Assembly: GCA_025357915.1 (NCBI GenBank)
Contig: JANYLH010000044.1
Coordinates: 14,390 to 78,389, forward strand
Direction of reading: 5' to 3'
DNA from: Gammaproteobacteria bacterium
GTDB lineage: Bacteria; Pseudomonadota; Gammaproteobacteria; Steroidobacterales; Steroidobacteraceae
DNA: 64,000 bases
Notes under the pieces: model-generated
Told to the model about the DNA's origin: nothing
Databases searched by the model: none
Seen by the model: only the letters and a program-made list of their open reading frames with translations
Program-made: the position numbers and the translations under genes
Shown here: piece by piece, positions 29,220 to 53,272 of the stretch
Numbering within the stretch: the first letter of the stretch is position 1
How the letters are laid out: every line of letters begins with the position of its first letter

Positions 29220-29223
<4 letters not shown>

Positions 29224-33235: not shown

Positions 33236-33251
33236 ACAGTGCGCGTGCGCG

Positions 33252-34043: not shown

Positions 34044-34053
34044 GGACGCTGGC

Positions 34054-37801: not shown

Positions 37802-39442
37802 ATGAGCGCACGCACCTGTCGCCGCACCGACCGCCGCCTCCAGATCCTGCTCAGGGTCATGGCGCTGCTCGCCTTCAGCCCCTGCGCGCTTGCCGCGCAG
37901 GCGGGCAAGATCGTATTCGTGGCCGGCAACGTAACGCTGGAGGCGAGCCACCGCCCGCTCCAGCGCGGCGACACACTCAACACCGGCGACACGGTCGTGA
38001 CTGCGGCGGGCGCCCGCGCGCAGCTCTTGATGGGCGACGGCGCGCGGATTGCACTGCGTTCGGGGTCGCGCTTTCGTATCGATGCGTTCGAGCTTGGCGC
38101 CGCGGTCAGGAACCCGGCGGCCACGGCGGTCGCGGCCTCGACCGGGCGGAGCCTGAGCACGCTGCTCAGCGGTGGTTTTCACACCGCCTCAGGCAGCATT
38201 GGCAAGGCAGATCCGTCCGCGTACGAGGTGCGCGTGCCGGTCGGCACGCTCGGCATCCGCGGCACCGACTACGTAGCGGTGTACTGCCGCAGCGATTGTA
38301 CCGATGCGCCAGGACTGAAGCCCGGTGAACCGGTAAGAGACGGCCTGTACCTTGGCGTCTACTCCGGCAGCATCGTGTTTCGCGGCGGTGACCTTGAAGT
38401 CGTGGTCGCGGCGGGCGAGTTCGTGTTCATACCGGTGCCCGAACTCAAACCCGAACGGCTCCAGCTGCCACCGGCGCCGATAGTCGGCGACGGTGCCGGA
38501 CCACTCGACCTGGCAGGCGCCACCGCGGGCGTGCAGGCGCGCCCCGCCGGCAAGCACTCGGGTTTCGGTGATTCCGGCGGGGGTCATGGCCCGGCTTCCC
38601 CCGTCACGGAGCCGCCGCCGCCAGCCAACGGCACGGTCCAGCCGGTGGGCGGATCGGTGAACGGCGTGCCGATCGATCTGACGCCGGGCCAGCTGCCCAC
38701 ACGCAACGATTCCACCTGGATAACCGGCCCGGTGCGCGGCCTGTTCAGTCCCGGCAGCAACGCCGCGGCCACGACGCAGTATGGCTTTGGCGGTACAGGC
38801 GGCGGCGCCACCGTGCTGCCCGTGCTGGGCGATGCGGGGGCCGCTTTGCTGCAGATCGGCACAGCCACCGCCAGCGAGTCGGGGTTCGATGCCGCGACCG
38901 GACTGCGCTGGGGTCGCTGGAGCGGCGGCAGCGTCAACCTCGTCACCGCAACCGGCGGCAGCGTGCCGGTGCCGCTCGGGAGCGACAGCGTGCACTGGGT
39001 TGCCGGAAGCGGCTACGTCGATGCTGCCATCCCGGTGCTGCCGGTCAGCGGCACGGCGACTTACAACCTCGCAGGCGCCACCCGCCCGACCGACGGCCTG
39101 GGCAACCTCGGCACACTCAACAGCCTTAAGCTGACCGCCGACTTCAGCGCGAACGCAGTGACCGCAGCCCTGGCGCTGACCATCGCCAACGTGGACTGGA
39201 TCGCCAGCGGCAACGGCTTCATCCTCGCGGGCTCGAAGACGACTGGCCCACAGTTCAACGGCGCGTTCGGCGCGCCCTCGATAGGCGGCTCCACGCAATT
39301 GGGCGGTGGCGGCCAGTTCAGCGGCTTCTTCAGCAATGTGCCCGGACAGGTATCGGGCGCGCCTGGCGCAGCCGGCATCTCCTATACCCTGTTCGCGCCA
39401 GGGGCTGGCACTGTATCGGGTGCAGCGGCACTCAGCCGATGA
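37802..39442 (+). CDS. secreted FecR-domain protein with TbpB/fHbp-like C-terminal 8-strand-barrel motif (candidate Slam cargo)
   Basis: It has a signal peptide and a FecR domain (GKIVFVAGNVTLEASHRPLQRGDTLNTGDTVVTAAGARAQLLMGDGARIALRSGSRFRI). The C-terminus reads GTATYNLAG...LTADFSANAVTAAL...GQFSGFF...GAAGISYTLF, like TbpB-type barrel domains. Confidence 0.6.
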   Translation: MSARTCRRTDRRLQILLRVMALLAFSPCALAAQAGKIVFVAGNVTLEASHRPLQRGDTLNTGDTVVTAAGARAQLLMGDGARIALRSGSRFRIDAFELGAAVRNPAATAVAASTGRSLSTLLSGGFHTASGSIGKADPSAYEVRVPVGTLGIRGTDYVAVYCRSDCTDAPGLKPGEPVRDGLYLGVYSGSIVFRGGDLEVVVAAGEFVFIPVPELKPERLQLPPAPIVGDGAGPLDLAGATAGVQARPAGKHSGFGDSGGGHGPASPVTEPPPPANGTVQPVGGSVNGVPIDLTPGQLPTRNDSTWITGPVRGLFSPGSNAAATTQYGFGGTGGGATVLPVLGDAGAALLQIGTATASESGFDAATGLRWGRWSGGSVNLVTATGGSVPVPLGSDSVHWVAGSGYVDAAIPVLPVSGTATYNLAGATRPTDGLGNLGTLNSLKLTADFSANAVTAALALTIANVDWIASGNGFILAGSKTTGPQFNGAFGAPSIGGSTQLGGGGQFSGFFSNVPGQVSGAPGAAGISYTLFAPGAGTVSGAAALSR

Positions 39443-39452: not shown

Positions 39453-41861
39453 TTGCTGACCGAGCGCGTCTCGATCGCAGTGATCGGCGCCGGCCCGGCC
39501 GGCCTTTCGGCCGCGGCCCACGCCGCCGACCTTGGCATCCCGCACCTGCTGCTCGAGGCGAGTCCGGGTCACGCCAACACCATCCGTAAATACCAGAAGG
39601 GCAAGCACGTCATGGCCGAGCCAGGGGCGCTGCCGCTGCGCAGCCCCCTGCCGTTTGCGGCCGCGGTCCGTGAGGCCGTGCTCGAGGGCTGGGACGCCGG
39701 ACTCGCGGCGCATCGCGTCAATGTCCGCTACGGCGCCGAGGCGGTCGCCATCAGCGGCTCGCGCCCGCAATTCCAGATCGCGTTGAAGGATGGCAGCGTG
39801 GTCCACGCCGAGTGCGTCGTGCTTGCAATCGGCGTGCAGGGAAATCCGCGCAAGTTGGGCGTGTCCGGCGAAGACCTGGCTTGCGTGCAATACCAGCTCG
39901 ACGATGCCGACGCCTATCGCGACGAGGCCATCGTCGTCGTCGGCGCCGGCGATGCCGCGATCGAGAACGCGCTGGCGCTGTCGAAGCGTAACCGCGTCTG
40001 CCTGGTGAACCGTGCCGCCGAGTTCTCGCGCGCCAAGGAAGGCAACCTGAGCGCGGTGCTCAAGGCAATCGAAGCCGGCACGCTCAGCTGCTTCTTCAAG
40101 AGCTCCTGTGCGCGCATCGAGGCCAGTGCCGGCGCGCAGCGAGGTTATCGCCTGACGCTCGACACCGATACCGGCGAGGCCAGCGTCGCGTGCGACCGGA
40201 TCATCGCCCGGCTCGGGGCCATCCCGCCGCGGCAATTTCTCGAGGCCTGCGGTGTCGGGTTCCCGGGGCCGCAGCCGACCGCGCTGCCTATCCTGTCCGA
40301 CCAGTACGAGTCGAGCGTGCCCGGGCTGTACGTGGTCGGTGCGCTCGCTGGCTATCCGCTGATCAAGCAGGCGATGAACCAGGGCTATGAGGCGGTCGAG
40401 TACAGCCGCGGGCGCGCTGTGGAGCCGGCCGACGAGCCGATCCTGCGCGAGCGGTTCGCACCGCTCCCCTTCGGCCTGACGGTCGCCGGCACGCTGGCGT
40501 TGATCCGCGAGCGCGTGCCGCTGTTCGCGGAGGTGAACCCGTTGCTGCTGCGCGAGCTGGTGCTGGGCAGCGAAGTCCACGCACCCGCGTCCGGCACCGT
40601 GCTGTTCCGCAAGAACGACTACACCAATTCGTTTTACACGATCATAAATGGCGGCGTCGACATGGAACTCGGCGACGAGGGCCAGCAACGCATAGCACTG
40701 CGCCAGGGTCAGTTCTTCGGCGAGGGGAGTCTGCTGTCCGGCCGTCGGCGCGCCGGCAGCGCGCTGGCCGGCGCCGGCTGCGTGGTGCTGGAGACGCCGC
40801 GCCGCGAGATCCTCAAGCTCATGAGCTCGGTCGACGGGGTCCGGCGCGTGGTCGACGAGCTGTTCATCATCCGCGCGATCCAGTCAAGCTTCGCGACCGA
40901 CGCCTCCTTCGACGAACTGCGCACGGTCGCCGCCGGCGCGCGGCTCAACCGCTACCGGCCGGGCGAGATGCTGTTCGAGGAAGGCGCGGTCGCCGACTGC
41001 CTGCACCTGGTGCGGAGCGGTTCGGTCGCGGTATTGCGCCAGCTCGGCGGGCGCGACGTCGTTACGTCGTATGTTGCCGCGGGCAACTATGTCGGCGAGA
41101 TCGGCCTGCTGGGCCGCACGCGGCGTACGGCGAGCGTGCGGGCGAACGTCGCCACCGAGACCGTGAGCATTGACGCCGCCGCCTTCGACCAGCTGCTGGC
41201 GCGCAACGCGGCGCTGCGCGAGCGCATCCAGGACACCATCCGTGAGCGGCTGGCCGCGAACGCGCGCATGCAGGGCCAGACCCAGGCGGGCGACCTGATC
41301 TCGTTTCTGATGCAGCAGGGCCTGGGGGAGGCCACCGACGTGCTGCTGATCAACGAGTCGCTGTGCGTGGGCTGCGACAACTGCGAGAAGGCCTGCGCCG
41401 AAACGCACGGCGGCACCTCGCGCCTCGACCGCGGGGCCGGGCCGAGCTTCGCGCAGGTGCACGTACCCACCTCCTGCCGGCACTGCGAGGACCCGCACTG
41501 CATGACCGATTGCCCGCCGGACGCGATCCGGCGCGCACCGGACGGCGAGGTGTACATCCGCGACAACTGCATCGGCTGCGGCAACTGCGAGCGCAACTGC
41601 CCGTACGGCGTGATCCAGATGGCCGCCGCGACGCCTGCCAAGCCCCCGCTGCTGGCGTGGCTGCTGTTGGGAAGCGGTCCCGGGCCCGGCGGCGTGGCCG
41701 GCGCGCCCGCCGACCCGCAAGCCGCGAAGAAGGCCGTGAAATGCGACATGTGCAAGGACCTGGGCGGCGGCCCCGCCTGCGTCCGCGCCTGCCCGACGGG
41801 CGCCGCGATCCGCATCAGTCCCGAGCGCTTCGTCGAGCTCGCCCATGGCAGCGATGTCTAG
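39453..41861 (+). CDS. fusion protein: FAD/NAD(P)-binding oxidoreductase + two cyclic-nucleotide-binding domains + four-cluster [4Fe-4S] ferredoxin (DmsB/NrfC-like)
   Basis: VIGAGPAGLSAA (FAD), VVVGAGDAAIENA (NAD(P)) and GLYVVGALAG are present. The cNMP motifs are FFGEGSLL... and YVGEIGLLGRTRRTASVRA. The Cys motifs are CVGCDNCEKAC, CRHCEDPHCMTDCP, CIGCGNCERNCP and CDMCKDLGGGPACVRACP. The start (TTG 39453) is inferred and uncertain. Confidence 0.8.
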   Translation: MLTERVSIAVIGAGPAGLSAAAHAADLGIPHLLLEASPGHANTIRKYQKGKHVMAEPGALPLRSPLPFAAAVREAVLEGWDAGLAAHRVNVRYGAEAVAISGSRPQFQIALKDGSVVHAECVVLAIGVQGNPRKLGVSGEDLACVQYQLDDADAYRDEAIVVVGAGDAAIENALALSKRNRVCLVNRAAEFSRAKEGNLSAVLKAIEAGTLSCFFKSSCARIEASAGAQRGYRLTLDTDTGEASVACDRIIARLGAIPPRQFLEACGVGFPGPQPTALPILSDQYESSVPGLYVVGALAGYPLIKQAMNQGYEAVEYSRGRAVEPADEPILRERFAPLPFGLTVAGTLALIRERVPLFAEVNPLLLRELVLGSEVHAPASGTVLFRKNDYTNSFYTIINGGVDMELGDEGQQRIALRQGQFFGEGSLLSGRRRAGSALAGAGCVVLETPRREILKLMSSVDGVRRVVDELFIIRAIQSSFATDASFDELRTVAAGARLNRYRPGEMLFEEGAVADCLHLVRSGSVAVLRQLGGRDVVTSYVAAGNYVGEIGLLGRTRRTASVRANVATETVSIDAAAFDQLLARNAALRERIQDTIRERLAANARMQGQTQAGDLISFLMQQGLGEATDVLLINESLCVGCDNCEKACAETHGGTSRLDRGAGPSFAQVHVPTSCRHCEDPHCMTDCPPDAIRRAPDGEVYIRDNCIGCGNCERNCPYGVIQMAAATPAKPPLLAWLLLGSGPGPGGVAGAPADPQAAKKAVKCDMCKDLGGGPACVRACPTGAAIRISPERFVELAHGSDV

Positions 41862-42744
41862 CATTCACGAGTCGGCCCTCGCCTACCGCGGGCGCCGCTA
41901 CCTGTGGGTCGCGCTGGCACTGACGGCAGCCTCCGTGCTCGCCTACGCGTGGCACTCGCCAGCCGTACCGCCGAACGGCGGCACCTGGCTGGGCTATACG
42001 CTGGGCACGGTCGCCGCGCTACTGATCCTGTTGCTGCTGGCGCTCGGCATCCGCAAGCGCAGCTACCACTCGACGCTCGGCACCGTCAGCGGCTGGGTAT
42101 CGGCGCACGTATACCTGGGGCTGGCACTGGTCGTGGTGGCCACGCTTCACACCGGGTTTCACTTCGGCCGCAACGTGCACACGCTCGCCTACGTGCTGAT
42201 GTGTCTGGTCATCGCACTGGGCATCGTCGGCGTCGTGCTGTACGCGCGCTACCCGGCCCGCATGAGCGTCAACCGCCAGGGGCGCGCACGCGCGCAACTC
42301 GTGGAAGAGGTCAACGATCTCAATGCCCGCGCACTGCGCGTCGCGCAACCGCTGCCCGCGGAATTCCTGGCGGCGGTGCGCAGCGCGCGCGACCGGCTGG
42401 TGCTCGGCGGCAACGCCTGGACGCTGCTCACCGGCCGCGACCGCTCCCGCGTCGTGCTGCCAGGGAGCGACGGCGCCAGCGCGCCGCTCGCCAACCCCTT
42501 TCAGGCGACGCTGATCGCCTGGCTTGGCGACCGCCTCGCGCGCTGCCAGGACGGCGAGGTGGCGCCGCGCATTCAGAGCCTGCTCACGCTCATCAGCGCC
42601 CAGCGGGTCGCAATCGAGCGCCTCAAACGCGACCTCGCCTTCCAGGCGCGGCTCGACGCCTGGCTGTATTTGCACGTGCCGTTGTCCTTCGCGTTGCTGG
42701 CCGCGCTCCTGGCGCATGTCGTCAGCGTGTTCCTGTACTGGTAA
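41845..42744 (+). CDS. integral membrane protein with two HX13H motifs (putative di-haem b, ferric-reductase/NOX-like transmembrane electron carrier)
   Basis: About five hydrophobic helices by eye. His88/His102 sit in helix 3 and His277/His291 in the last helix, each pair separated by exactly 13 residues. It overlaps the upstream gene by 17 nt. Confidence 0.7.
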   Translation: MAAMSSIHESALAYRGRRYLWVALALTAASVLAYAWHSPAVPPNGGTWLGYTLGTVAALLILLLLALGIRKRSYHSTLGTVSGWVSAHVYLGLALVVVATLHTGFHFGRNVHTLAYVLMCLVIALGIVGVVLYARYPARMSVNRQGRARAQLVEEVNDLNARALRVAQPLPAEFLAAVRSARDRLVLGGNAWTLLTGRDRSRVVLPGSDGASAPLANPFQATLIAWLGDRLARCQDGEVAPRIQSLLTLISAQRVAIERLKRDLAFQARLDAWLYLHVPLSFALLAALLAHVVSVFLYW

Positions 42745-42754
42745 GGCCTGCGCC

Positions 42755-44464
42755 GTGCGTACCCTGATCCGCTTCGTCAGCCGCGCCACAGGCGGTGCCG
42801 TCGAGACCAGCGAGCGGCTCTTCGATGGCGAGGCGCTCACTCTCGGCCGCGCCACCGACCAGGTGCTGCAGTTCAAGGACGGACGTGTGGCATTCCAGCA
42901 CGCGCGGATCTTCCGGCGGGGCAGCCGCGTGCTGCTCGCCTGCCGCGCGCCGGCGACCGTCATCGTCAACGACGCATTGGTGCGCGAGGCGGAGTTGTCG
43001 CTGGGCGACGTACTGCGTCTGGGCGCAAACGTACTCACGCTCATCGAGCCGCCCGCCGGCGCCGATCTCGCGCTGACCTTCGAGCTCGATCCGGCTGCGT
43101 CCGAGGCGGAACTCGCGACGGTCAATGCACCGCTCCTGCTCTCGGGCGGGCGGCTCGGCAAGCGCGGCTGGTCCTGGCTGCTGTTTCTCACACTGCTGGG
43201 CGCGTTCCTCGTGCTGCCGGTATTGGTGTTGCCTGCGAAGTCCACCCGCGAGGCGCTGCGCGCGAGCTGGCTGCCGAGCGATCACGCCTATTCGCCCGGC
43301 GCGCTGCACTCGGTGCACCAGACGATCGGCGGTCGCTGCGAGGCGTGCCACCAGCAGGCCTTCGTCCGGGTACGCAACGAGGCGTGCCTCGCCTGCCACG
43401 CGACGGAACTGCATCGGCACGTCGACGCGGGCAGCCCACGGGCGCGTGCAGTGGAGCAGATGCGCTGCCTTGCCTGCCATTCCGGCCACGAACCCGCGCC
43501 GTTGCTGCGCAGCGGCTCCGGCGGCTGCGTCGCTTGCCACGCTGACGTCTCGCTCGCCGGCGACCCGCACCGCCTCGGTGCCGTCAGCGACTTCGGTCGC
43601 GCGCACCCGGAGTTCCGCGTCACCTTGCTGCGCCCGGACGCCGCCGGCATCGCTGGCGCGAGTGAGCGGGCGCGCCTCGATGCGCCCGCGCTGCGCGAGC
43701 ACTCGCACCTCAAGTTCTCGCACGCGCAGCACCTCGATCCGCGGGGAGTCAAGACGCTGGACGGGCGCCGGGTGCTCGGCTGTGCCGATTGCCACGTGCC
43801 CGAGCCCGGCGGCGGGCGCATGTTGCCGATCCGCATGGCGGCGCACTGCCAGAGCTGCCACCGGCTCGACTTTGACCCGGCGTTCCCGGACCGCCAGCTG
43901 CCGCACGGCGATGTGACCGGGGCGGTGAACACGCTGTTCGAATACTACAGCGCACGCTACCTGGAGGGCTGGCCGGATCCGAACGCGCGAGCGTCCGCCG
44001 GGCGCTTCGCGGCGACGCCTGGACCCGCGCTGGCACCGGCCGAGCGTGAGCGCCGGCTCGGCCTCGCACGCACGCGCGCCGCAGTGGTCGCGCGTGACCT
44101 CATCGAGCGGCGCGCCTGCGTCGTGTGTCATGAAGTACGCGTGGTCGCGGACGCGGCGCTGCGCTGGCAGGTCACGGCAGTACGGCTCACGCACGCCTGG
44201 TTCCCGGCTGCGCGGTTCGATCACGCGCAGCACACCACTACGCTGACGCCGTGCTCCTCGTGCCACGACGCGGCACATTCCACACAGTCCGCGGACGTGC
44301 TCATGCCACGCATCGCGACCTGCCGTCGCTGTCACGCGGGGAGCGGCGGCGCGGCGCCGCCCGCCGGCAAGGTGGCGACCGGATGTCCGGCCTGCCATGC
44401 GTTCCACGACCCGCGGCGCGCGCCCTGGGTTCCGGTGGCGCAGCCAACGGATCCGGGACGGTGA
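42755..44464 (+). CDS. FHA domain - single TM - decahaem c-type cytochrome (cytochrome c3/c7-like)
   Basis: An N-terminal FHA-like fold (LTLGRATDQVLQFKDGRVAFQHARI...VIVNDALV...LSLGDVLRLGANVL) is followed by a TM (WSWLLFLTLLGAFLVLPVLVLPA). Ten CXXCH motifs follow: CEACH, CLACH x2, CVACH, CADCH, CQSCH, CVVCH, CSSCH, CRRCH and CPACH. GTG start at 42755. Confidence 0.85.
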   Translation: MRTLIRFVSRATGGAVETSERLFDGEALTLGRATDQVLQFKDGRVAFQHARIFRRGSRVLLACRAPATVIVNDALVREAELSLGDVLRLGANVLTLIEPPAGADLALTFELDPAASEAELATVNAPLLLSGGRLGKRGWSWLLFLTLLGAFLVLPVLVLPAKSTREALRASWLPSDHAYSPGALHSVHQTIGGRCEACHQQAFVRVRNEACLACHATELHRHVDAGSPRARAVEQMRCLACHSGHEPAPLLRSGSGGCVACHADVSLAGDPHRLGAVSDFGRAHPEFRVTLLRPDAAGIAGASERARLDAPALREHSHLKFSHAQHLDPRGVKTLDGRRVLGCADCHVPEPGGGRMLPIRMAAHCQSCHRLDFDPAFPDRQLPHGDVTGAVNTLFEYYSARYLEGWPDPNARASAGRFAATPGPALAPAERERRLGLARTRAAVVARDLIERRACVVCHEVRVVADAALRWQVTAVRLTHAWFPAARFDHAQHTTTLTPCSSCHDAAHSTQSADVLMPRIATCRRCHAGSGGAAPPAGKVATGCPACHAFHDPRRAPWVPVAQPTDPGR

Positions 44465-46434
44465 AGCGCGCATCGGCCTGTCTCGCTCCACTGGCGGCGC
44501 TGACGTTGTCGGCCTGTGGCGGTGGGGGCGAAGTCGCTTCGGGTGTGCCCACAAGCCCGCCGCCCCCGGGCCTGGTCTGTACCGGCCAGTGCGCGAATGC
44601 CCTCACGCTGCTGTCGCAGGCGGACGTGGAGCGCACGATCGCGCAGGCGGTCGCCGAGGCGCAGGCCCGCGGCGCGCACGCCACCGTCGCGGTTGTCGAC
44701 CGCGTTGGCAACGTGCTCGGTGTGTTCCGCATGAATGGCGCGGCGAATACCGTCACGATCGGGTCGGGACTGGCCACAGGCGGTCTCGAGAACGTCACGA
44801 TTGTCCCTGACACAGTCGCGGCCATCGCCAAGGCCGTGACGGCGGCATACCTGTCGAGCGAAGGCAATGCGTTCTCGACCCGCACAGCGAGTCAGATCGT
44901 GCAGGAGCATTTCAATCCGGGCGTAGCGCTGGCGCCGGGCGGTCCGCTGTTCGGCGTGCAGTTCAGCCAGCTGCCCTGCTCCGATCTGATGGCGCGGGCG
45001 GGAGCCGCGCCCGCCCCTGGCCCGCAGCGCTCGCCGCTGGGCCTCGCGGCGGATCCGGGTGGCCTGCCGCTCTACAAGGCCGGCACGCCGGTGGGCGGCG
45101 TGGGCGTAATCGCCGATGGCCGCTACGGGCTGGATCGCAACGTGCTCGACACGGACGTGGATCTGGACGAAACGATCGCGCTCGCCGCGACCTTTGGGCT
45201 CGCGGCGCCCGACGATCGCCGCGCCGACCGGATCACGGCTGATGGCAGGACGCTGCGTTTCAGCGATGCGACGGTGGCGACGCTCGCCAGTGCGCCCGCT
45301 GCTGCGCCGTCATTCGCGTCCCTGGACGGCGTCGCGGGTCACCTGCTTGCAGTGCCCGGCTACGGCGCAGCGACGACGCGCGCGGGCCTCGCGTATGGCA
45401 CGAGCGCCTCGGGCATCCGCTCCGATGCCAGCGACTACCCGGGACTCGACGCGCAGGTGCTGGTGGACGCGAGCGATGCGCCCCGCTATCCGCCGCGCGC
45501 CGGCAGCGAAACCTCGGGTGCACTGAGTGCGACCGAAGTGCGCGAGATCCTGCGCGCGGCACTCGGCGTGGCGAACCGCACCCGCGCCCAGATCCGCCTG
45601 CCGCTTGGCTCGCAGGCGCGCGTCACCGTCAGCGTCGTCGACAGTCAGGGTGTAGTCCTCGGAATAGCCGCTATGCGCGACGCACCGGTATTCGGCGTCG
45701 ACGTCTCGCTGCAAAAGGCGCGCTCGAGCGCGTTCACGAGCTCGGCGGCCGCGGCCGCGGCACTCGCGGCTGCGCCCGATGCGGTCTATCTCGACGGTGG
45801 ACTGAGTGTGCTCGCGCGGGTGCCACTGGCCAGCTACGTGACGGCGACGCGCGCATTCCTGGGGTTGCCAGCAGCGCTCGGCGACGGCGGCGTCGCCTTC
45901 AGCGCGCGCGCGCTGGGCAACATGGCGCGACCGTTCTATCCCGACGGCGTCGACGGCACCCATGCCGGACCCTGGTCCAGGCCGGCCGCGGCGTGGAGCC
46001 CGTTCAGCACCGGCTTACAGCTGGATCTGGTTTATAACGCCCTGGTGCAGCATGTCGCCTTCGTGCTTGGCGCGGCACCCGACGTGGGCTTCAGTTGCAC
46101 CGGTGTCAGCGGCTTTGACACCGGCTTTGCTCCCGCCGCGCCCATCCCGGCGCTCGCCAATGGCCTGCAGATCTTTCCGGGCGGCGTGCCGATCTATCGG
46201 GACCACACGCTGGTCGGCGCGATCGGCGTGTCAGGCGATGGCGTCGACCAGGATGACATGATCGGCTTCCTGGGCGTCGATAGCGCCGCGCAACGCCTCG
46301 GCGGCTTCGGCAATGCGCCGCCCGACCTGCGCAGCGACACGCTGGTGCCGCGCGGCGCGCGCTTGCGCTATGTCGGCTGCCCGGTGGCACCGTTCCTCGA
46401 CTCGTCGACGCAGGACGAGTGCAGTGGCCGCTAG
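44461..46434 (+). CDS. lipoprotein with two GlcG/HbpS-like (DUF336, haem-binding/degrading fold) domains
   Basis: A lipobox (LTLSAC). Domain 1 reads LSQADVERTIAQAVAEAQARGAHATVAVVDRVGNVLGVF...GGLPLYKAGTPVGGVGV. Domain 2 reads VTVSVVDSQGVVLGIAAM...GGVPIYRDHTLVGAIGVSGDGVDQDDMI. GTGA overlap with the upstream stop. Confidence 0.7.
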   Translation: MKRASACLAPLAALTLSACGGGGEVASGVPTSPPPPGLVCTGQCANALTLLSQADVERTIAQAVAEAQARGAHATVAVVDRVGNVLGVFRMNGAANTVTIGSGLATGGLENVTIVPDTVAAIAKAVTAAYLSSEGNAFSTRTASQIVQEHFNPGVALAPGGPLFGVQFSQLPCSDLMARAGAAPAPGPQRSPLGLAADPGGLPLYKAGTPVGGVGVIADGRYGLDRNVLDTDVDLDETIALAATFGLAAPDDRRADRITADGRTLRFSDATVATLASAPAAAPSFASLDGVAGHLLAVPGYGAATTRAGLAYGTSASGIRSDASDYPGLDAQVLVDASDAPRYPPRAGSETSGALSATEVREILRAALGVANRTRAQIRLPLGSQARVTVSVVDSQGVVLGIAAMRDAPVFGVDVSLQKARSSAFTSSAAAAAALAAAPDAVYLDGGLSVLARVPLASYVTATRAFLGLPAALGDGGVAFSARALGNMARPFYPDGVDGTHAGPWSRPAAAWSPFSTGLQLDLVYNALVQHVAFVLGAAPDVGFSCTGVSGFDTGFAPAAPIPALANGLQIFPGGVPIYRDHTLVGAIGVSGDGVDQDDMIGFLGVDSAAQRLGGFGNAPPDLRSDTLVPRGARLRYVGCPVAPFLDSSTQDECSGR

Positions 46435-48226
46435 CGCAACTCGCGCCTGCGCGTGCGCGCTGGCCCTCGCCGGTGCGGGTCTTGCCACCGGCGTGGTCCG
46501 CGCCGGAGACGGGAGCACGACCGCGCCCTGCCCGCCCGAGTCCCCGGTCGCGGCCGAACGCAAGGCACCGGCGGTACCCGAGCTGCCCGGCTTCGCGCCC
46601 ACGCCGTGCAATCCGGCCGCGCTACCCCCACCGCGCGCGGACCAGCCGGGGACGCTCGCCGGGCTCCCGGATCGCTGGCGCATGGTCTCGACGCTGGGGT
46701 ACCCCGAGCGGCTCCACGACCCCTACCACGGCAACAACTGGTTGAAGGGCGATCGCCCGGCGTTCGGTGCTGACTGGTTCGTCAACCTCGCGGCGGTCGC
46801 GGATACCGTCGTCGAGCCCAGGCGCTTCCCGCTGCCAGTCGGCAACGTCGTCACCGAACGCCCGGGGAGCCTCGACGCCTACGGGCACGGCGCGAGCCAG
46901 CTCTATGCCCAGACCCTCGCCTTCGAGGCCGTCCTCTATCAGGGCGATACCGTATTCAAGCCGCCGGAGTGGGAGTTTCGCCTCACGCCCGTCTTCAGCG
47001 TCAATCGTGTCGAGGTAGGCGAGCGCGGCCTGGTGAACGCCGCCGCAGGCGCGCCGCTGTCGCGCACCGACACGGCGCTCGGGCTGCAGGCGGCGTTCGT
47101 CGATCGCCATCTGCGCAATGTTTCCGCGCACTACGATTTCGACAGCCTGCGCGTCGGCATCCAGCCGGTGACCGCGGACTTCCGCGGCTTCCTCTACACG
47201 GATGCGGCGCTAGGCGTGCGGCTGTCTGGCAACCGGGCCAACAATCGCTACCAGTACAACTTGGGTTGGTTCCGTCGCCTGGAGAAGGACACCAATTCCG
47301 GACTCAACGACGTGTTCGCTCGTGGCCTCGCCTCACTGCGCCATGACAGCGTAGTGCTCGCCAACCTGTACGCGCAGGACACGCCACTGCCCGGTTTCAC
47401 CTCGCAACTGGTGGTGGCGTACAACCGCAACCGGGAAGGCGGCGAACTACGCTACGACGGCAACGGCGCGCTGCAGCGTCCGGCGCAAATCGGTGATGGC
47501 CGCGGCCGCGACTACCAGGTGACCTACCTCGGCGTCAACGGCGATGGCCATGTCGGCGTGCTCAACGCGACCATTGCCGGCTACTTCGTATTCGGGCACG
47601 AATCGCGCGGCACCTTCGCCGCCGCCGCAGACCAGGTGCGCGCCTTCTTCGCAGCCGCCGAAGTGTCGCGCGACTGGGACTGGCTACGGGTCCGCGCTTC
47701 GATCGCGCTGCAGAGCGCCGATCACGATCCATTCGACCGGCGTGCCACCGGGTTCGATGCGATTGTAGAGAACCCGTTGTTCGCCGGCGCCGATACCAGT
47801 TTCTGGATCCGTCAGCCGGTGCCACTGATTGCCGGCGGCGGCGTATCACTGTCGGGTCGCAACGGCCTGCTCAGCTCGTTGCGCTCCTCGAAGGAATTCG
47901 GCCAGTCCAACTTCACCAACCCGGGACTGCAGCTGGTTGGCGTCGGCGCCGACGCGGACCTCACGCCGACGCTGCGGGTCAGCGCGAACGCCAACGACCT
48001 GCGCTTTGGCGACACGGCGGTGCTCGAGGTGGCGCGCGCGCAGGCATCGATCCCAAGACGCATCGGGCTCGACCTCTCGCTCGCGCTCAGCTGGCGTCCC
48101 CTCGCCACGCAGAACGTGGTCGCACGCCTGTCGGCCGCGAAGCTGCTGCCGGGCAGCGGCTGGAAAACGCTTTATGGCGGCGAGCAGGGCTATTCCATTC
48201 TCGGCAACCTGATACTGAGCTACTGA
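46424..48226 (+). CDS. putative outer-membrane beta-barrel protein (unassigned family)
   Basis: A signal peptide (ACACALALAGAGLATGVVRAGD). It contains abundant alternating aromatic/polar stretches such as YQYNLGWFRRLEKD, YQVTYLGVNGDGHVGVLNATIAGYFVFG and LDLSLALSWRPL. The C-terminus is aromatic (NLILSY). The GTG start at 46424 overlaps the upstream gene. Confidence 0.55.
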   Translation: MAASATRACACALALAGAGLATGVVRAGDGSTTAPCPPESPVAAERKAPAVPELPGFAPTPCNPAALPPPRADQPGTLAGLPDRWRMVSTLGYPERLHDPYHGNNWLKGDRPAFGADWFVNLAAVADTVVEPRRFPLPVGNVVTERPGSLDAYGHGASQLYAQTLAFEAVLYQGDTVFKPPEWEFRLTPVFSVNRVEVGERGLVNAAAGAPLSRTDTALGLQAAFVDRHLRNVSAHYDFDSLRVGIQPVTADFRGFLYTDAALGVRLSGNRANNRYQYNLGWFRRLEKDTNSGLNDVFARGLASLRHDSVVLANLYAQDTPLPGFTSQLVVAYNRNREGGELRYDGNGALQRPAQIGDGRGRDYQVTYLGVNGDGHVGVLNATIAGYFVFGHESRGTFAAAADQVRAFFAAAEVSRDWDWLRVRASIALQSADHDPFDRRATGFDAIVENPLFAGADTSFWIRQPVPLIAGGGVSLSGRNGLLSSLRSSKEFGQSNFTNPGLQLVGVGADADLTPTLRVSANANDLRFGDTAVLEVARAQASIPRRIGLDLSLALSWRPLATQNVVARLSAAKLLPGSGWKTLYGGEQGYSILGNLILSY

Positions 48227-48233
48227 CAGAGCG

Positions 48234-51200
48234 ATGCGCCACTACACCATCCTGCTGGCCTTCACGACGCTTGCCTGCCTGGCGCGCGGCGCGCCTGCGC
48301 AGGCTGCTGCCGACGAGGAAACGCCCGTCGAGCGCGCCTGGGTGACGGCGCCGTCCGCGCCGGCAAGCCAGACGCAATCGGCCGCGGATGCCAAGAGCGA
48401 GGGCTGCATCTCCTGTCACGCAGCCAGCGACGCTGCGAGCATGCACGCGGCGAAGGCGGTCGTGCTCGGCTGCACCGACTGCCACGGCGGCGATGCGTCA
48501 GTGCGCTGGCGCGGCGCGGCCTCAAAGAGTGATCCGCAGTATTCTGCGAGCCGCGATCGCGCCCACGTGCTGCCGCGCTTTCCGGCGAGCTGGCACTACC
48601 CGGACAGCGCCAACCCGGAGCGCAGCTACACGCTCCTGAACCGCGAGGCCCCGGAGTTTATCCGCTTTAAAAACCCTGGCGACTACCGGATCGCGCGCGA
48701 GGCCTGCGGCGCCTGCCATCTGCGCATCATCGAGGCCGCGGAACGGAGCCTCATGTCCACGAACGCGATGTTCTGGGGCGGCGCCGCGTACAACAACGGC
48801 ATCCTGCCGTTCAAGAACTACCTGCTCGGCGAGGGTTATACGCGCGAGGGCAAGTCGACGGTTATCGAAGGGCCACCCCTCACGCCCGAGGAAGCGTTGC
48901 AGCATGGCATCCTGCCCCGCCTCTATCCCCTACCGCGCTTCGAGACCATCCGGCCCGGCGATATCTTCCGGGTTTTCGAGGACGGCGGCCGCAACATCTC
49001 GAACCTGTTCCCCGAGACGGCCCTGCCGAACGTGTCGGGCGAACTGGAGCGGCTTGAGGAACCGGGCCGGCCCGATATCCGCCAGTCCAATCGCGGCCCC
49101 GGCACGGGCGCGCGCATCGCGGTGCCGGTGCTCAACATCCACAAGACGCGCCTCAACGACCCGCTTGCATGGTTCCTCGGCACCAACGACCAGCCCGGTG
49201 ATTACCGCTCCTCGGGCTGCAGCGCCTGCCACGTGGTTTACGCCAACGACCGCGACCCGGCGCACTCCGGGCCCTACGCGCGCTACGGGCACGAGGGCAC
49301 CTCGCAGCAGCGCGACCCGGTGATTCCGCGCGACCGGCCCGGCCACGCCCTGCAGCACGCGTTCACGCGCAGCATCCCTTCCAGCCAGTGCATGGTCTGC
49401 CACATGCACCAGCCGAACATGTTCATGAACACGTTCTACGGCTACACGATGTGGGACTACGAATCCGACGCGCCCTCAATGTGGCCCGGGCAACAGCGCT
49501 ACCCCACCGCCGATGAGACGCGGGCCGTGCTCGACCGCAATCCCGAGGGCGCCGCACCGCGTGGCAACTGGGCGGATCCCGGGTTCCTCAGCCGGGTCTG
49601 GGAACTCAACCCCGGGCTCAAGGATACGCAGTTCGCCGACTACCATGGCCACGGCTGGAATTTTCGCGCTGTCTTCAAGCGCGATCGCCATGGGCACCTG
49701 CAGGACAGCGCGGGCGCGATCGTCGCCAACGACGACCCGCAAAAGTGGGCCAAGGTCGTGCACATGGCTTCGGTGCATGTCGATGTCGGCATGCACTGCG
49801 TCGACTGTCACTACGGCCAGGACGCGCACGGCACCGGCCACATCCATGCCGAGGTCGCGCAGGCAGTCGAGATTGACTGCAAGGACTGCCACGGCACCGT
49901 GCGAGCCTACCCGACACTGCGCACTTCCGGTCCCGCAGCCGGCCCGAACGGCACCGACCTCGCGACGATTCGAAACCCCGACGGCCGTCTGCGCTTCGAG
50001 TGGCGCGACGGAAAACTGCTGCAACGCTCCGCCGTGGATCCCGCGAGGGAATGGGTGGTCTCGCTGGTCAAGGATTCGGTGACTCCAGGAAATCCGCGTT
50101 ACAACCCGCGCGCCGCGCGCGCCAAGCTCATGGCGAGGGATCCGCTGGGGCAGAAGTGGGGCACCGACGTCGCCTGGCCGCAACTCGCGCACAGCGACGA
50201 CAACATGGAGTGCTACTCCTGCCACACGTCGTGGACCACGAGCTGCGGGGGCTGCCACTTGCCGATTGAGGCCAACTGGAAGAGCGAGAAACACCGCTTC
50301 GAGGGCGGCACGAGCCGCAATTACGCCAGCTACAACCCGCAGGTGGCGCGCGACGACATGTTCCTGCTCGGTCGCCGCGGGCCGGTCGAGAACGGCAAGA
50401 TCGCCCCGGTGCGCTCGTCCTCGGCGCTGGTGCTGTCCTCGACCAACGCGAATCGCGAGCACATCTACGTGCAGCAGCCACCGATTGCAGCCTCGGGCTT
50501 TAGCTCACAGGCGATGAACCCGCACTACCCGCACACCGAGCGCAAGACCGAGACCAAGACCTGCAGTGACTGCCACCTGGCGGCCACGCGTGACAACAAC
50601 GCGATCATGGCGCAGACCCTGGGTCAGGGTACGCAGTACATCAACTTCGTCGGGCTCAACGCCTACCTCGGCACCGAGCGCGCGGTCGCCGCGGTGCAGG
50701 TAACCGAGTGGGAGGAGCCGCAGGCGGTCATCGGCAGCTACCTGCACCGCTATGCGTATCCCGATTACTACGCGGCACACCTGGCGCGCGGCCGGCAGCT
50801 GACGAACGCGGCCACGCACGCCTCCGGGCCCGCCAGCTGCGTGCAGCAACGCGGCGAATACCTGTACGCCTCCGAGGGCCATGGCGGATTGCGCGTCTAT
50901 GACATTGCCAGCATCGCCAACAAGGGAGTCAGCGCCCGGATTCTCAGCGCGCCGTTCTCGCCGTTGGGCCACGATACGCACGTGACCACGCGTGATGCCT
51001 CCTGCGTGGTGCTCGCGACCACGCAACCGGTGCAGCCCTCGCGCAACCAAGGTGCGCTGATGCGCGAGGCCAACCTCGAGCAGCCCTTCCTCGACGTCTA
51101 TCGTTACGCGTTCATCACTGACCGGGTCGAAGGGCTGATCCTGGTGGACATCGACACGCTCATGGACGGCAACTTCCGCAACAACCAGCTGCGGCGGGCG

Positions 51201-51974
51201 CTCACCTGGAACCCCGGCGGAGTGCTGCGCGGCGCGCGACACCTCGCCATCGGCGGCCGCTACCTCTACATCGTTGCCGACGCGGGCCTGATCGTTGCCG
51301 ACTTCCAGGATCCGCTCGCCCCGCGCGTACTCGCAACCGTCCCGCTGGACGACGCGCGCGCCGCGATGCTGCAGTTCCGCTATCTGTTTGTCACCGACCG
51401 CAGCGGGCTCGCGGTCATCGACGTCACGCATCCCGAGGGGCCACGCCTGGTGCCCGGCGCGCGCGTGCCGCTCGCCGACGCGCACAAGCTGTTCGTGTCG
51501 CGCACCTACGCCTGGGTGGCCAATGGTCGCGAGGGCCTGGCGATCATCGATGTCGAGAAACCCGAGGCGCCACGCCTGTTCCGGAACTTCAACGCCGACG
51601 GCGCGCTCGGCGATTCCCGCGACGTGGTGCTCGCGGCGACCAATGCCTCGTCATTCGCCTACGTGGCCGACGGCGCGGGCGGACTCAAGGTGATCCAGAC
51701 GATCGCCCCGGACACGCAGCCCGATTTCTACGGCTTCGCGCCCGAACCCCGGCCGCAGTTGATCGCGAGCTACCGCACGGCGGCCCCGGCCCTCGCCCTG
51801 TCGCGGCCGCTTGAGCGCGACCGCGCGGTGGACGAGAGCGGCGGGCAGGTTGCAGTATTCGGCCGCCGCGGCTCACGACCGTTTACTCTGCAGGAGATGC
51901 AACGCATGTACCTCGACGCAGCGGGTAACCCGTGGTTCGTCAGCGATTCCACGGCCCCTGGAGCGCCGCGATGA
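48234..51974 (+). CDS. 1246-aa secreted decahaem c-type cytochrome fused to a C-terminal LVIVD-repeat beta-propeller
   Basis: It has a signal peptide. Ten CXXCH motifs are spread over about 800 aa: CISCH, CTDCH, CGACH, CSACH, CMVCH, CVDCH, CKDCH, CYSCH, CGGCH and CSDCH. About six LVIVD-type repeats follow: GGLRVYDIASI, EGLILVDIDTL, AGLIVADFQDPLAP, SGLAVIDVTHPEGP, EGLAIIDVEKPEAP and GGLKVIQTIAP. Confidence 0.85.
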   Translation: MRHYTILLAFTTLACLARGAPAQAAADEETPVERAWVTAPSAPASQTQSAADAKSEGCISCHAASDAASMHAAKAVVLGCTDCHGGDASVRWRGAASKSDPQYSASRDRAHVLPRFPASWHYPDSANPERSYTLLNREAPEFIRFKNPGDYRIAREACGACHLRIIEAAERSLMSTNAMFWGGAAYNNGILPFKNYLLGEGYTREGKSTVIEGPPLTPEEALQHGILPRLYPLPRFETIRPGDIFRVFEDGGRNISNLFPETALPNVSGELERLEEPGRPDIRQSNRGPGTGARIAVPVLNIHKTRLNDPLAWFLGTNDQPGDYRSSGCSACHVVYANDRDPAHSGPYARYGHEGTSQQRDPVIPRDRPGHALQHAFTRSIPSSQCMVCHMHQPNMFMNTFYGYTMWDYESDAPSMWPGQQRYPTADETRAVLDRNPEGAAPRGNWADPGFLSRVWELNPGLKDTQFADYHGHGWNFRAVFKRDRHGHLQDSAGAIVANDDPQKWAKVVHMASVHVDVGMHCVDCHYGQDAHGTGHIHAEVAQAVEIDCKDCHGTVRAYPTLRTSGPAAGPNGTDLATIRNPDGRLRFEWRDGKLLQRSAVDPAREWVVSLVKDSVTPGNPRYNPRAARAKLMARDPLGQKWGTDVAWPQLAHSDDNMECYSCHTSWTTSCGGCHLPIEANWKSEKHRFEGGTSRNYASYNPQVARDDMFLLGRRGPVENGKIAPVRSSSALVLSSTNANREHIYVQQPPIAASGFSSQAMNPHYPHTERKTETKTCSDCHLAATRDNNAIMAQTLGQGTQYINFVGLNAYLGTERAVAAVQVTEWEEPQAVIGSYLHRYAYPDYYAAHLARGRQLTNAATHASGPASCVQQRGEYLYASEGHGGLRVYDIASIANKGVSARILSAPFSPLGHDTHVTTRDASCVVLATTQPVQPSRNQGALMREANLEQPFLDVYRYAFITDRVEGLILVDIDTLMDGNFRNNQLRRALTWNPGGVLRGARHLAIGGRYLYIVADAGLIVADFQDPLAPRVLATVPLDDARAAMLQFRYLFVTDRSGLAVIDVTHPEGPRLVPGARVPLADAHKLFVSRTYAWVANGREGLAIIDVEKPEAPRLFRNFNADGALGDSRDVVLAATNASSFAYVADGAGGLKVIQTIAPDTQPDFYGFAPEPRPQLIASYRTAAPALALSRPLERDRAVDESGGQVAVFGRRGSRPFTLQEMQRMYLDAAGNPWFVSDSTAPGAPR

Positions 51975-53272
51975 GGTTCGCACTGTTTCCAGCCTGTGCC
52001 CGCGCGTTGGTCCTGGCCGCGTTGCTGGGCGCCGCCGCCGCGGCGGCGAACCCGGGGGCGCCTGCCGACGCCGTGCACCAGGGCGTCGCCAGTTGCGCCA
52101 GCGGCATCTGCCATGGTTCGGCGAAACCCCGCTCGGCCACACCGGTGCAGCAGAACGAATACGTCACCTGGCAACATTTCGATCCGCACGCCGGCGCTTT
52201 CCATGCGCTGAGCGAACCGCGTGGCCGCGAGATCGCGCGACGGCTGGGCATTGCCGATGTCACCGCCGCGCCCCAGTGCCTCGGCTGCCACGCCGATGCC
52301 GCGCCCCCGGCGCAACGCGGCCCGCGCTTCCAGCTCGACGACGGCATCGGCTGCGAGAGCTGTCATGGTGCCTCTGATCGCTGGATCGCGAGCCACGCCG
52401 ACACGCCGCGCGTCACTCATGCGGACAACCTCCGCGCGGGGCTGCGTCCCCTCGAGCAGCCCGTCGTACGGGCCAGCGTGTGCCTCGACTGCCACGTCGG
52501 CTCGGTAGGCAATCTGGCCACTCACGCGATGATGGCGGCCGGCCACCCGCGGCTCAGCTTCGAGCTGGACACCTACACCGAATTGTGGCGGACGAGCGGC
52601 GGCCGCGAGCACTACGTGCGCGACCAGGACTACCGGCAGCGCAAGGGCCTTCCCCCAGCCACCGACGTGTGGATCGCAGGGTTGCTGGCGCAGGCGCGGC
52701 GCCAGCTGGCGATCCTCCGCGAGGATCCGGCGCCGGGCCTGCTGCCGGAGTTCGCGCTTTTCAACTGTTACTCCTGCCACCGCACCATGGGGCTCTCGCG
52801 TTGGGCCGCGCGGGAATCGAGCCCGGCCGGATCGGCCGGCGCCCTGCGCTTTGACGACAGCGCGTTGCGGCTCATCGCCGCGGTACTCGGGGCTGCCGGA
52901 TCCGCCGATGCCACACTGCTGCCCGAAATGGTGCGGGAACTCCAGGCGGCGCCGGGCAGGGATTGGGCGGCCGTGCAGCGCGCCGCAGCGGCACTAGATG
53001 CCGCTCTGGCCCCGTTGGCCGTCAGGCCGCCGGCACTCTCGGCGCCGCAGGCGCGAGTGCTGCTCGAGCAACTGTCCGCGGCGGTGCAGCGGGGCGAGTA
53101 TCGCGACTATGCCGGCGCAGAACAGGTGGCCATGGGGGCTGTGGTGCTGCTCGAGGCGAGCGGCCAGCCGACCGGATCAGCTGCGGTCGAAGCCCTGTTC
53201 GCGAGCCTGGCCGACGACGAGCGCTTCGACGCGGCGCGATTCCGGAGCCTGCTCGAGCACGCCACGAAATAG
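51971..53272 (+). CDS. secreted multihaem c-type cytochrome (cytochrome c554-like family)
   Basis: It has a signal peptide and four CXXCH motifs (CLGCH, CESCH, CLDCH, CYSCH). One additional CX4CH motif (CASGICH) is present. ATGA overlap with the upstream gene. Confidence 0.8.
   Translation: MRFALFPACARALVLAALLGAAAAAANPGAPADAVHQGVASCASGICHGSAKPRSATPVQQNEYVTWQHFDPHAGAFHALSEPRGREIARRLGIADVTAAPQCLGCHADAAPPAQRGPRFQLDDGIGCESCHGASDRWIASHADTPRVTHADNLRAGLRPLEQPVVRASVCLDCHVGSVGNLATHAMMAAGHPRLSFELDTYTELWRTSGGREHYVRDQDYRQRKGLPPATDVWIAGLLAQARRQLAILREDPAPGLLPEFALFNCYSCHRTMGLSRWAARESSPAGSAGALRFDDSALRLIAAVLGAAGSADATLLPEMVRELQAAPGRDWAAVQRAAAALDAALAPLAVRPPALSAPQARVLLEQLSAAVQRGEYRDYAGAEQVAMGAVVLLEASGQPTGSAAVEALFASLADDERFDAARFRSLLEHATK

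Follow-up and report, generated by a model that had tools for sequence, protein, structure and literature searches.

Introduction

How a bacterium might carry reducing power at the level of NAD(P)H from its cytoplasm to an acceptor beyond the inner membrane, without passing through the quinone pool, is the question raised by seven adjacent genes in a Steroidobacteraceae genome (GCA_025357915.1, contig JANYLH010000044.1). The window analysed here, meaning the whole stretch of 64,000 nucleotides (nt) at positions 14,390-78,389 of the forward strand, contains at 39453-53272 a run of seven open reading frames (ORFs) on the + strand, named G1 to G7, which encode a flavoprotein with iron-sulfur (Fe-S) motifs, a predicted membrane cytochrome b, three multihaem cytochromes c, a lipoprotein and a predicted beta-barrel. 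A sequence-only reading of the same DNA had taken them for a complete redox chain from the cytoplasm to the cell surface, of non-canonical composition, forming a conduit across the whole envelope.

The answer reached here retains one part of that conduit and drops the other. The cytoplasm-to-periplasm half, comprising NAD(P)H, flavin adenine dinucleotide (FAD), four [4Fe-4S] clusters, a predicted dihaem cytochrome b and an anchored decahaem protein, is well supported by sequence comparison, whereas the continuation from the periplasm to the surface is not supported. Judging from protein sequences and structural models, we consider it an evenly balanced proposition that the cluster would act as a signal-gated, quinone-independent electron-export machine ending in a periplasmic reductase.

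The proteins of the cluster account for thousands of metagenome sequence clusters, none of them functionally named. Among the hosts are lineages abundant in sediments, in soils and in the sea (Woeseiaceae, Halieaceae, Steroidobacteraceae, Colwelliaceae, Lysobacterales and Sphingomonadales), with cultured representatives such as Colwellia, Thalassotalea, Parahaliea, Novosphingobium and Solimonas. If the proposed reading is true, ubiquinone-only aerobes would export NAD(P)H-level reducing power without the quinone pool and under second-messenger control, which would bear on the enzymes that drive extracellular reduction and reactive-oxygen production by heterotrophs, and on the use of multihaem cytochromes outside classical metal respirers.

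Organisation and conservation of the gene cluster

Domains were assigned by Pfam and NCBIfam profile searches, structures were examined through AlphaFold2 (AF2) models and Foldseek, and synteny was analysed by tblastn of all genes against 80 loci, 44 of which had full flanks. The window is chromosomal DNA of approximately 69% G+C, and housekeeping genes (SUF, ffh, trmD, rimM, radA, dnaX, prc) flank the cluster. The starts and junctions first read for the seven same-strand ORFs were borne out on the + strand, with successive spacings of -17, +10, -4, -11, +7 and -4 nt, and a recount of the c-type haem motifs again gave a sum of 24 CXXCH plus one CX4CH over G1-G7, conserved in the orthologues of G3, G6 and G7. 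Pfam and NCBIfam also agreed with the domain content originally described for the seven proteins, G5 having no family match. Because the features of G1-G7 are conserved in orthologues, they lie far beyond chance, and the cluster is real, conserved and widespread across genomes.

The seven genes had also been expected to form a single operon-like unit and to recur together, and both expectations held. All seven are found together in 38 of the 44 fully flanked loci, G1-G6 are colinear in 38 of 44, the exact order and strand are kept in 29, and the median junctions in other genomes range from -4 to +13 nt. No G7 lies nearby in four of these loci, and two Sphingomonadales loci consist of G7-G4-G5-G6 only, G1-G3 being absent within 10 kb. 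The synteny supports G1-G7 as one conserved operon-like unit. An all-against-all comparison of flanking ORFs revealed no further universally conserved neighbour beyond G1-G7, the recurrent ones being shadow ORFs, signalling genes and, in three Sphingomonadales loci, two-partner-secretion genes.

Conservation within the cluster is graded, with G6 as its most conserved protein (median identity 63%), followed by G1 (57%), G4 (56%), G5 (54%), G2 (45%), G7 (38%) and G3 (36%), a pattern which fits fast-evolving wires (G3, G7) combined with constrained catalytic or ligand-binding parts (G6, G4, G5). Homologues of G5 number more than 6000 at E≤1e-3 and carry no functional name, those with a source name being called 'hypothetical protein'. 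When genomes were scanned at one per species, a G5 relative turned up in at least 590 species, mostly Gammaproteobacteria (Steroidobacteraceae/Acidibacter, Woeseiaceae, Halieaceae, Colwelliaceae, Lysobacterales, Nevskiales, Alcanivoracaceae, Thiotrichales and Methylococcales), and Sphingomonadales are also among the carriers.

Some loci depart from the common arrangement or carry unexpected labels. The mobile members of the cluster are G7 and G1 (loci L062, L069, L073, L074, L033, L058, L063, L077 and L080); in L062, a Thiotrichaceae metagenome-assembled genome (MAG), the region 15927-21259 holds two G7 paralogues, with G1 moved downstream of both. Five MAG records (L002, L024, L045, L053 and L063) bear the names Klebsiella pneumoniae, Flavobacterium, Sulfotelmatobacter, Patescibacteria or Verrucomicrobiia and encode proteins 50-66% identical to the gammaproteobacterial ones; these carriers are more probably mis-binned contigs than cases of wide horizontal transfer.

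Entry module and predicted haem wires

G1 (39453..41861, + strand) joins a flavoprotein of TrxR fold, predicted to bind FAD and NAD(P)H, to two cyclic nucleotide monophosphate (cNMP)-binding domains and a ferredoxin domain with four [4Fe-4S] clusters. Its profile matches comprise Pyr_redox_3/2, cNMP_binding twice and Fer4 with four Cys motifs, the flavodomain being TrxR/YpdA-like, and the protein is cytoplasmic, with no signal peptide. Across 51 sequences the GxGxxG (FAD) and GxGxxA (NAD(P)H) motifs are conserved, and the 16 Fe-S cysteines vary little or not at all. No redox-active CxxC occurs in the flavoprotein, which places G1 closer to TrxR-fold ferredoxin/NAD(P)H reductases than to disulfide reductases. 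The C-terminal domain matches NCBIfam models of FDH-beta, HybA, HydN, DmsB, NrfC, HmcB and DsrO. PF00027 matches G1 at 2.8e-33 over two domains, in which the phosphate-binding cassettes 'FFGE...RxAT' and 'VGE...RxAT', of the form that marks a cNMP-binding cassette, are conserved across the 51 orthologues. Pfam and NCBIfam detected no DNA-binding, kinase or cyclase output domain in G1.

G2 (41845..42744, + strand) is a 299-aa predicted dihaem cytochrome b with five predicted transmembrane (TM) helices and its N-terminus inside, a topology read from hydrophobic segments and positive-inside residues. It carries two HX13H pairs, H88/H102 in TM3 and H277/H291 in the last TM helix, and a cytoplasmic insert of approximately 135 aa between TM4 and TM5. 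All 59 sequences compared retain these four histidines, and also H112, where TM4 reaches the periplasmic side. The first histidine of each pair (H88, H277) is predicted close to the cytoplasmic face and the second (H102, H291) close to the periplasmic face, which is the geometry of the two-haem wires that cross the membrane in proteins of the NOX and b561 types. Ni_hydr_CYTB (Pfam) is matched by 25 of 29 G2 orthologues (best 7e-8), the window copy reaching an E-value of 1.3 only and showing weak DUF4405 and Ferric_reduct matches, the latter also weak in two of the 29; by these profile matches G2 belongs to the b561/FdnI/HyaC family (Ni_hydr_CYTB). A search of the G2 profile against PDB sequences returned noise only.

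The earlier proposal of an NAD(P)H/Fe-S entry in place of a quinol one agrees with this gene content. No quinol dehydrogenase of the CymA/NapC/NirT, ImcH or CbcL type was found in the cluster with Pfam and NCBIfam, the entry genes being G1 and G2.

G3 (42755..44464, + strand; 569 aa) consists of an FHA-fold domain (Pfam FHA 1.3e-5), one TM helix and a periplasmic decahaem cytochrome c (Cytochrom_c3_2 4e-11). Ten CXXCH motifs are present in 53 of 55 orthologues and ten non-motif histidines are invariant, enough for all haems to be bis-His ligated. A Lys-Arg before the single TM helix places the FHA fold in the cytoplasm and the haems in the periplasm. The FHA domain scores 26 bits with PF00498 against a cut-off of 20.7. 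Of the Gly-Arg, Ser-x-x-His and Asn-Gly residues with which FHA domains bind phosphothreonine it has GR and N(G/D), the Ser position being occupied by Ala or Leu (consensus 'ALxHA'). PDB sequences match G3 in FHA and c7 fragments only.

G7 (51971..53272, + strand) is a secreted pentahaem cytochrome c with a c554-like N-terminal part (Pfam Cytochrome_C554 4e-11), cytochrome c554 being its only PDB match (9e-4). Its set of four CXXCH and one CX4CH is found in 51 of 51 orthologues, together with five further invariant histidines. The gene varies in placement between genomes, being found upstream, inverted, duplicated or absent, and in several loci upstream on the opposite strand, and we propose its product as a periplasmic connector. 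The compartments first predicted for G1 (cytoplasm), G2 (inner membrane), G3 (N-terminus in, haems periplasmic) and G4 (lipoprotein) are all retained.

The decahaem-propeller protein, the lipoprotein and the barrel

G6 (48234..51974, + strand) is a secreted decahaem cytochrome c of 1246 aa with a C-terminal LVIVD beta-propeller. Its ten CXXCH motifs are present in 63 of 63 orthologues and LVIVD matches in 38 of 38 homologues, while PF22113, the MtrC/MtrF pentahaem domain II/IV, is weakly matched by 25 of the 38 (best 2.8e-7), the window copy scoring 12.8 bits against a cut-off of 30. The signal peptide is an ordinary Sec one, a lipobox-like motif occurring in four of 63 orthologues only. The AF2 model is confident in the propeller (predicted local distance difference test, pLDDT, ~90) and unusable in the haem part (pLDDT <50); because the haem domain failed, Foldseek was limited to generic propellers (AztD, WD40, YWTD and NirN). 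Neither a single-sequence nor a profile search found a PDB sequence relative.

A catalytic propeller of the NosZ or cd1 type was considered for G6 and rejected, as no invariant His falls within the modelled blades in an alignment of 38 sequences; the last invariant His, H849, sits at the N-terminal edge of the propeller. Searching 1.84 billion cluster representatives with G6 gave 1329 matches at E≤1e-30. Among the 150 matches listed, approximately 15-20 are near full length (~1,170-1,700 aa) and the rest are nearly all fragments or giant LVIVD proteins. Five distant full-length relatives (P0255, P0257, P0260, P0261 and P0264; 1171-1262 aa, 41-45% identity) align from about residue 259 onward, so that the N-terminal three-haem segment is replaceable within the family.

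G4 (44461..46434, + strand) is a lipoprotein with two GlcG/HbpS-like domains (Pfam HbpS-like 5e-19), whose PDB sequence matches are EfgA/GlcG-like proteins. A lipobox was recognised in 62 of the 72 orthologues, the residue at +2 being Gly, and the conserved cysteines are C40/C44, C173, C546, C640 and C654. Residues 40-44, some 20 residues past the lipidated Cys, form a CX3C motif (CTGQC here, C-x-G-S-C in most orthologues), which could be a disulfide or a metal/redox site. There is no haem motif in G4 and no invariant His in its orthologue alignment; a role as b-haem carrier was set aside, there being no invariant His to hold the haem.

G5 (46424..48226, + strand), previously described as beta-barrel-like in sequence, is now modelled by AF2 as an outer-membrane beta-barrel of approximately 18 strands behind a signal peptide, with a mean pLDDT of 65 and strands at 75-87. 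Foldseek placed AlgE, the 18-strand alginate exporter, first (8e-17), followed by MOMP, OccD/OprD, chitoporin and general porins of the OmpF type; no MtrB appeared among the first 50 matches. In 77 of 77 orthologues the protein ends in Y or F. No Pfam family matched G5 and no haem motif was found in it. Conservation is highest in a 70-aa loop that joins strands 13 and 14 (residues 431-501), and an AlgE/OprD-like barrel of about 18 strands whose long loop is its most conserved part, as in specific channels, supports the reading of G5 as a solute channel. The loop is putatively extracellular and contains AGADTSFW ... GQSNFxNPG. Residues 1-115 form a conserved Pro-rich extension with two Cys (PCPP ... 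PTPCDP, PDRWR, GYxENLLDPYHGNNWLKGDRP), and both the loop and this extension are modelled at low confidence. G5 and G6 are, on these searches, new protein families, with no characterised or solved relatives detectable by sequence.

The claim that the chain is complete to the cell surface finds no support in these three proteins, since G5 resembles AlgE/OprD and lacks a haem motif, G6 has a plain Sec signal and G4 has no invariant His.

Upstream module and signalling neighbours

The sequence-only reading, whose description of the seven genes is confirmed here, began the cluster too late. Two packed genes, U2 (from 36441) and U3 (from 37802), already precede G1, and only 10 nt separate the end of U3 from G1, so the operon-like unit probably begins further upstream; a cyclase/FecR/Slam-like module had been missed. 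Its first gene, U1 (34012..36288, + strand), encodes a membrane fusion of a CHASE2 sensor and a class III adenylate/guanylate cyclase (Pfam CHASE2 5.8e-57, Guanylate_cyc 8e-21). Approximately 10 of the 80 loci have a U1-like gene no more than 10 kb from the cluster, the copy in L062 being confirmed by Pfam. U1 is the likely source of the cyclic nucleotide that G1 would read, a link drawn from the domain content of the two proteins.

U2 (36441..37784, + strand) is a TPR protein (Pfam TPR_19 5e-9) with a C-terminal barrel-like region. Matches to TPR_Slam (1.4e-3) and SlipAM (1.9e-2), both sub-threshold and in the correct order, suggest that it is possibly a distant Slam-type outer-membrane translocon. 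U3 (37802..39442, + strand) is a secreted FecR-domain protein (Pfam FecR 5.7e-8). It holds the same position in 10 loci, and U2 accompanies it upstream of G1 in 7-10; in four Colwelliaceae-type loci a related pair is found on the downstream side instead. A FecR and TPR-barrel pair recurs beside the cluster in approximately 14 loci. U1-U3 may constitute a unit for sensing surface signals, in which the Slam-like barrel would handle the FecR-domain protein and CHASE2 would sense it.

Other lineages carry other signalling genes. In 7-9 loci of the Halieaceae type, the genes after G7 encode a PP2C phosphatase and a double-FHA protein: a PP2C with a protein bearing two FHA domains and a C-terminal TM helix lies approximately 1-3 kb past G7 in L015, L035, L037, L039, L041, L055 and L067, and a PP2C alone past G7 in L016 and L040. 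These neighbours suggest control by Ser/Thr phosphorylation in lineages without the cyclase module. Taken across genomes, signalling genes matching the cNMP domains of G1 and the FHA fold of G3 travel with the cluster in lineage-specific combinations. The window has a PP2C of its own at 61250-62308 (+ strand) followed by an FHA-domain protein at 62319-63038, a region (61250-63038) lying 8-10 kb past G7; this PP2C is only 32% identical to the Halieaceae-type one, which makes its link to the cluster speculative.

Further observations concern the surrounding DNA. A LigB-type extradiol dioxygenase ORF (33225-34043, + strand) overlaps the annotated start of U1 by 32 nt, so that either the cyclase starts later or the two genes are co-transcribed; SUF Fe-S assembly genes (29106-31765) lie just 5' of it. 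A scan of the window for Fur boxes gave 0 matches at ≤3 mismatches, and a promoter/terminator scan of the window yielded nothing informative. Three Sphingomonadales loci have a giant Gly/Thr-rich TpsA-like exoprotein of 1400-2000 aa, free of haem motifs, before the G7-G4-G5-G6 block (L060 450-6491, L068 307-6323, L078 193-4926), with a ShlB/POTRA transporter also present in L068; L060 and L068 have no G1-G3 within 10 kb, and in L078 these genes lie inverted downstream.

Proposed mechanism and alternative explanations

In the proposed mechanism, electrons would pass from NAD(P)H to FAD, the Fe-S clusters, the haem b on the cytoplasmic side of G2, its haem b on the periplasmic side, G3, G7 and finally G6. 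Transfer inward to NAD(P)+ runs against both redox potential and membrane potential, and we infer from this uphill course that the direction is outward. The membrane potential would aid outward flow, so the chain would spend energy rather than conserve it. A cyclic nucleotide, made here by the upstream CHASE2 cyclase, would switch the flow on, and the FHA-fold domain of G3 may modulate it as well. G6 would be the terminal, substrate-specific reductase at the inner face of the outer membrane, together with the lipoprotein G4, and G5 would serve as a solute-specific channel admitting the oxidant or releasing the product, not as a sheath for a cytochrome. We take the conservation pattern in this sense, with generic wires supplying G6 as a dedicated terminal enzyme and G4 and G5 as its dedicated partners, and not as a sign of an MtrCAB-style sheath. 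Its purpose would most likely be to deliver low-potential electrons to an extracytoplasmic acceptor beyond the reach of ubiquinol, in mostly aerobic hosts; as acceptor we would guess first at Fe(III) chelates or some other oxidant based on a metal or metalloid, and next at O2.

Several points weigh against this scheme. The cyclase adjoins the cluster in a minority of genomes only, and since G3 lacks the canonical Ser of FHA domains, its binding of phosphothreonine, and hence any gating through this domain, is uncertain. Members of the G2 family usually react with quinones, the characterised ones having a quinone site, so the quinone pool may be involved. With no model of its haem domain, the catalytic site of G6 is placed by conservation only. 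Barrels of Geobacter Pcc are predicted to have approximately 20 strands and Cyc2 has 16, so a small barrel alone does not exclude the passage of electrons. A surface location of G6 would fit both the weak MtrC/MtrF pentahaem matches in its homologues and the fact that LVIVD repeats were first described in surface proteins (PMC2447325).

The pentahaem matches and the LVIVD repeats also favour a true trans-envelope conduit, in which G3 and G7 would pass electrons through G5 across the outer membrane to G6, with G4, at the surface, and so to acceptors that are insoluble or lie outside the cell, for example Fe(III)/Mn(IV) minerals, humics or O2. The cluster does encode an outer-membrane barrel, a lipoprotein and a large decahaem protein; the TpsB and giant exoprotein adjoining the Sphingomonadales G7-G4-G5-G6 block suggest surface biology; and a related cluster, ptd, was read by its authors as a possible porin-cytochrome complex (10.1101/2023.11.21.568154). 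We nonetheless hold such a conduit unlikely, though a serious candidate, as the barrel is small, AlgE/OprD-like and remote from MtrB, neither G5 nor G4 offers a haem motif or a conserved His ligand, lipobox-like motifs are rare in G6 and no conserved secretion system for it lies beside the cluster, and the NCBIfam MtrA/DmsE model gives 35 bits on G3 against a cut-off of 192. A further, quite unlikely idea is that of a cNMP-triggered 'respiratory burst' machine of aerobic Proteobacteria, in which an external cue, sensed by the CHASE2 cyclase, would open G1 and send low-potential electrons from NAD(P)H by a quinone-bypassing route of b- and c-haems to the terminal cytochrome; associated with the outer membrane, this would carry out extracellular or periplasmic reduction, for example superoxide generation or Fe(III)/Mn mobilisation. 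If true, the cluster would be a bacterial counterpart of regulated NOX and ferric reductases assembled from unrelated components, in which G6 would represent a new family of decahaem-propeller enzymes and G5 a new family of barrels.

The quinone pool enters a further, distinctly improbable explanation, according to which G2 would react with quinol or quinone as FdnI, HyaC and CybB do, the c-haem chain would be fed from or drain into the pool, and G1 would be a regulated NAD(P)H:quinone entry or redox-balancing valve instead of the obligatory periplasmic donor. The membership of G2 orthologues in Ni_hydr_CYTB, a family with quinone sites, and the additional invariant H112 at the periplasmic end of TM4 speak for it, as do the two Sphingomonadales loci without G1-G3 within 10 kb, which show that the terminal module can evidently be fed another way. 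Set against these are the adjacency and overlap coupling of G1, G2 and G3 in 38 of 44 loci and the HX13H pairs on two helices, which have the geometry of a straight trans-membrane two-haem wire. A sensor of the periplasmic or extracellular redox state, or an inward route that oxidises a periplasmic donor to reduce NAD(P)+, is very improbable. The heavy signalling decoration (cNMP domains, FHA fold, neighbouring CHASE2 cyclase, PP2C/FHA genes) would suit a sensor, and HbpS, to which the G4 domains are related, is part of a redox-sensing system in Streptomyces. The cNMP-binding domains are nevertheless inputs and not outputs, G1 has no output domain, 25 c-haems, two b-haems and four Fe-S clusters would make a very costly sensor, transfer to NAD(P)+ would be uphill and against the membrane potential from any likely donor, and G6 is conserved beyond what a passive relay would lead one to expect.

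Comparison with known systems

A full-text literature search found nothing on G4-G6 and one relevant item for the cluster, a 2024 preprint describing ptdABCDEFG, a 'penta/tetra/deca-haem' putative porin-cytochrome complex of marine oxygen-deficient zone Alphaproteobacteria (bioRxiv 10.1101/2023.11.21.568154). The Tenderiales LVIVD protein was discarded as a precedent for G6, being a different, haem-free protein; a Woeseiaceae paper reports, by annotation, mtrCAB only, and a preprint on extracellular electron transfer in peat contained no relevant terms. The ptd operon, found in Alpha- and Gammaproteobacteria, encodes an FAD/NAD(P) oxidoreductase, a cNMP-binding 4Fe-4S protein, a ferric-reductase-like membrane protein, a periplasmic decahaem protein, a 'tetrahaem' protein and a porin, and its function, in the authors' words, 'remains completely unknown' (10.1101/2023.11.21.568154). 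By domain type it is the closest description of the present cluster, its entry-module domains, as the authors describe them, matching G1, G2, G3 and perhaps G7. The flavoprotein and the cNMP/Fe-S protein are, however, separate genes in ptd, with two clusters, and fused here in G1, with four. As its terminal protein ptd has a pentahaem NrfA-COG member that contains a beta-sandwich, whereas the present cluster has the 1246-aa decahaem-propeller G6 and the double-GlcG lipoprotein G4, equivalents of which are not mentioned for ptd, and the gene order also differs. No PtdA-type protein is encoded in 34-53.3 kb of the window, where NrfA/NrfH-type models gave marginal matches only. The cluster had been called non-canonical, which stands in that no characterised pathway matches it, although the partly similar ptd cluster had been overlooked.

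With Mtr/Mto/Pio and Geobacter Pcc the cluster shares multihaem c-cytochromes beside an outer-membrane barrel, and G6 homologues weakly match the MtrC/MtrF pentahaem domain. The earlier distinction from both types is upheld by barrel size, the MtrA and Ext models and the haem-free lipoprotein. MtrB-type porins, which sheathe the periplasmic decahaem, have 26-28 strands, against approximately 18 in the G5 model, and in place of a compact soluble MtrA-like decahaem (~300-350 aa) there is the membrane-anchored G3 of 569 aa. TIGR03508 (decahem_SO) gives 34.7 bits on G3, 14.5 on G6 and 14.9 on G7 against a cut-off of 192.2, and the ExtM/N/O models of Geobacter match partially and far below cut-off (e.g. 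49 bits against 800). Pcc systems (OmaB-OmbB-OmcB, Ext clusters) combine a porin-like protein with a periplasmic octahaem and a multihaem cytochrome that is an outer-membrane lipoprotein. Unlike Mtr and Pcc, the cluster has no lipoprotein cytochrome, its sole lipoprotein being G4, which lacks a haem motif and an invariant His.

Two further comparisons concern the inner-membrane half. In FdnH-FdnI a four-cluster ferredoxin-like module is likewise joined to a dihaem membrane cytochrome b, so that G1-G2 mirrors the beta and gamma subunits of formate dehydrogenase N on the cytoplasmic side, and Hmc, Tmc and DsrMKJOP similarly link a periplasmic multihaem cytochrome through the membrane to a cytoplasmic Fe-S protein. 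The present cluster differs from all of these in the cytoplasmic location of its four-cluster module and the fusion of that module to an NAD(P)H flavoprotein, in having no HdrD/CCG-type or NrfD-type subunit, and in its mostly aerobic proteobacterial hosts. NOX, FRE, SpNOX and MsrQ-Fre share with its predicted chain the succession from cytoplasmic pyridine nucleotide through flavin and two stacked b-haems (His 13 apart on two helices) to an outside acceptor, and NOX5 and DUOX also share the proposed gating by a second messenger. The G2 orthologues nevertheless fall in Ni_hydr_CYTB and not in Ferric_reduct, the six-TM domain of the NOX family with bis-His b-haems on TM3 and TM5, the G1 flavoprotein has a TrxR and not an FNR fold, four Fe-S clusters are interposed, and the acceptor is a 25-haem c-type chain in place of O2 or Fe(III) directly. 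On this comparison the cluster would work like NOX and is not a member of the NOX/ferric-reductase family; its place is within the transmembrane and porin-associated multihaem electron-transfer systems, to which it brings the new families of G5 and G6.

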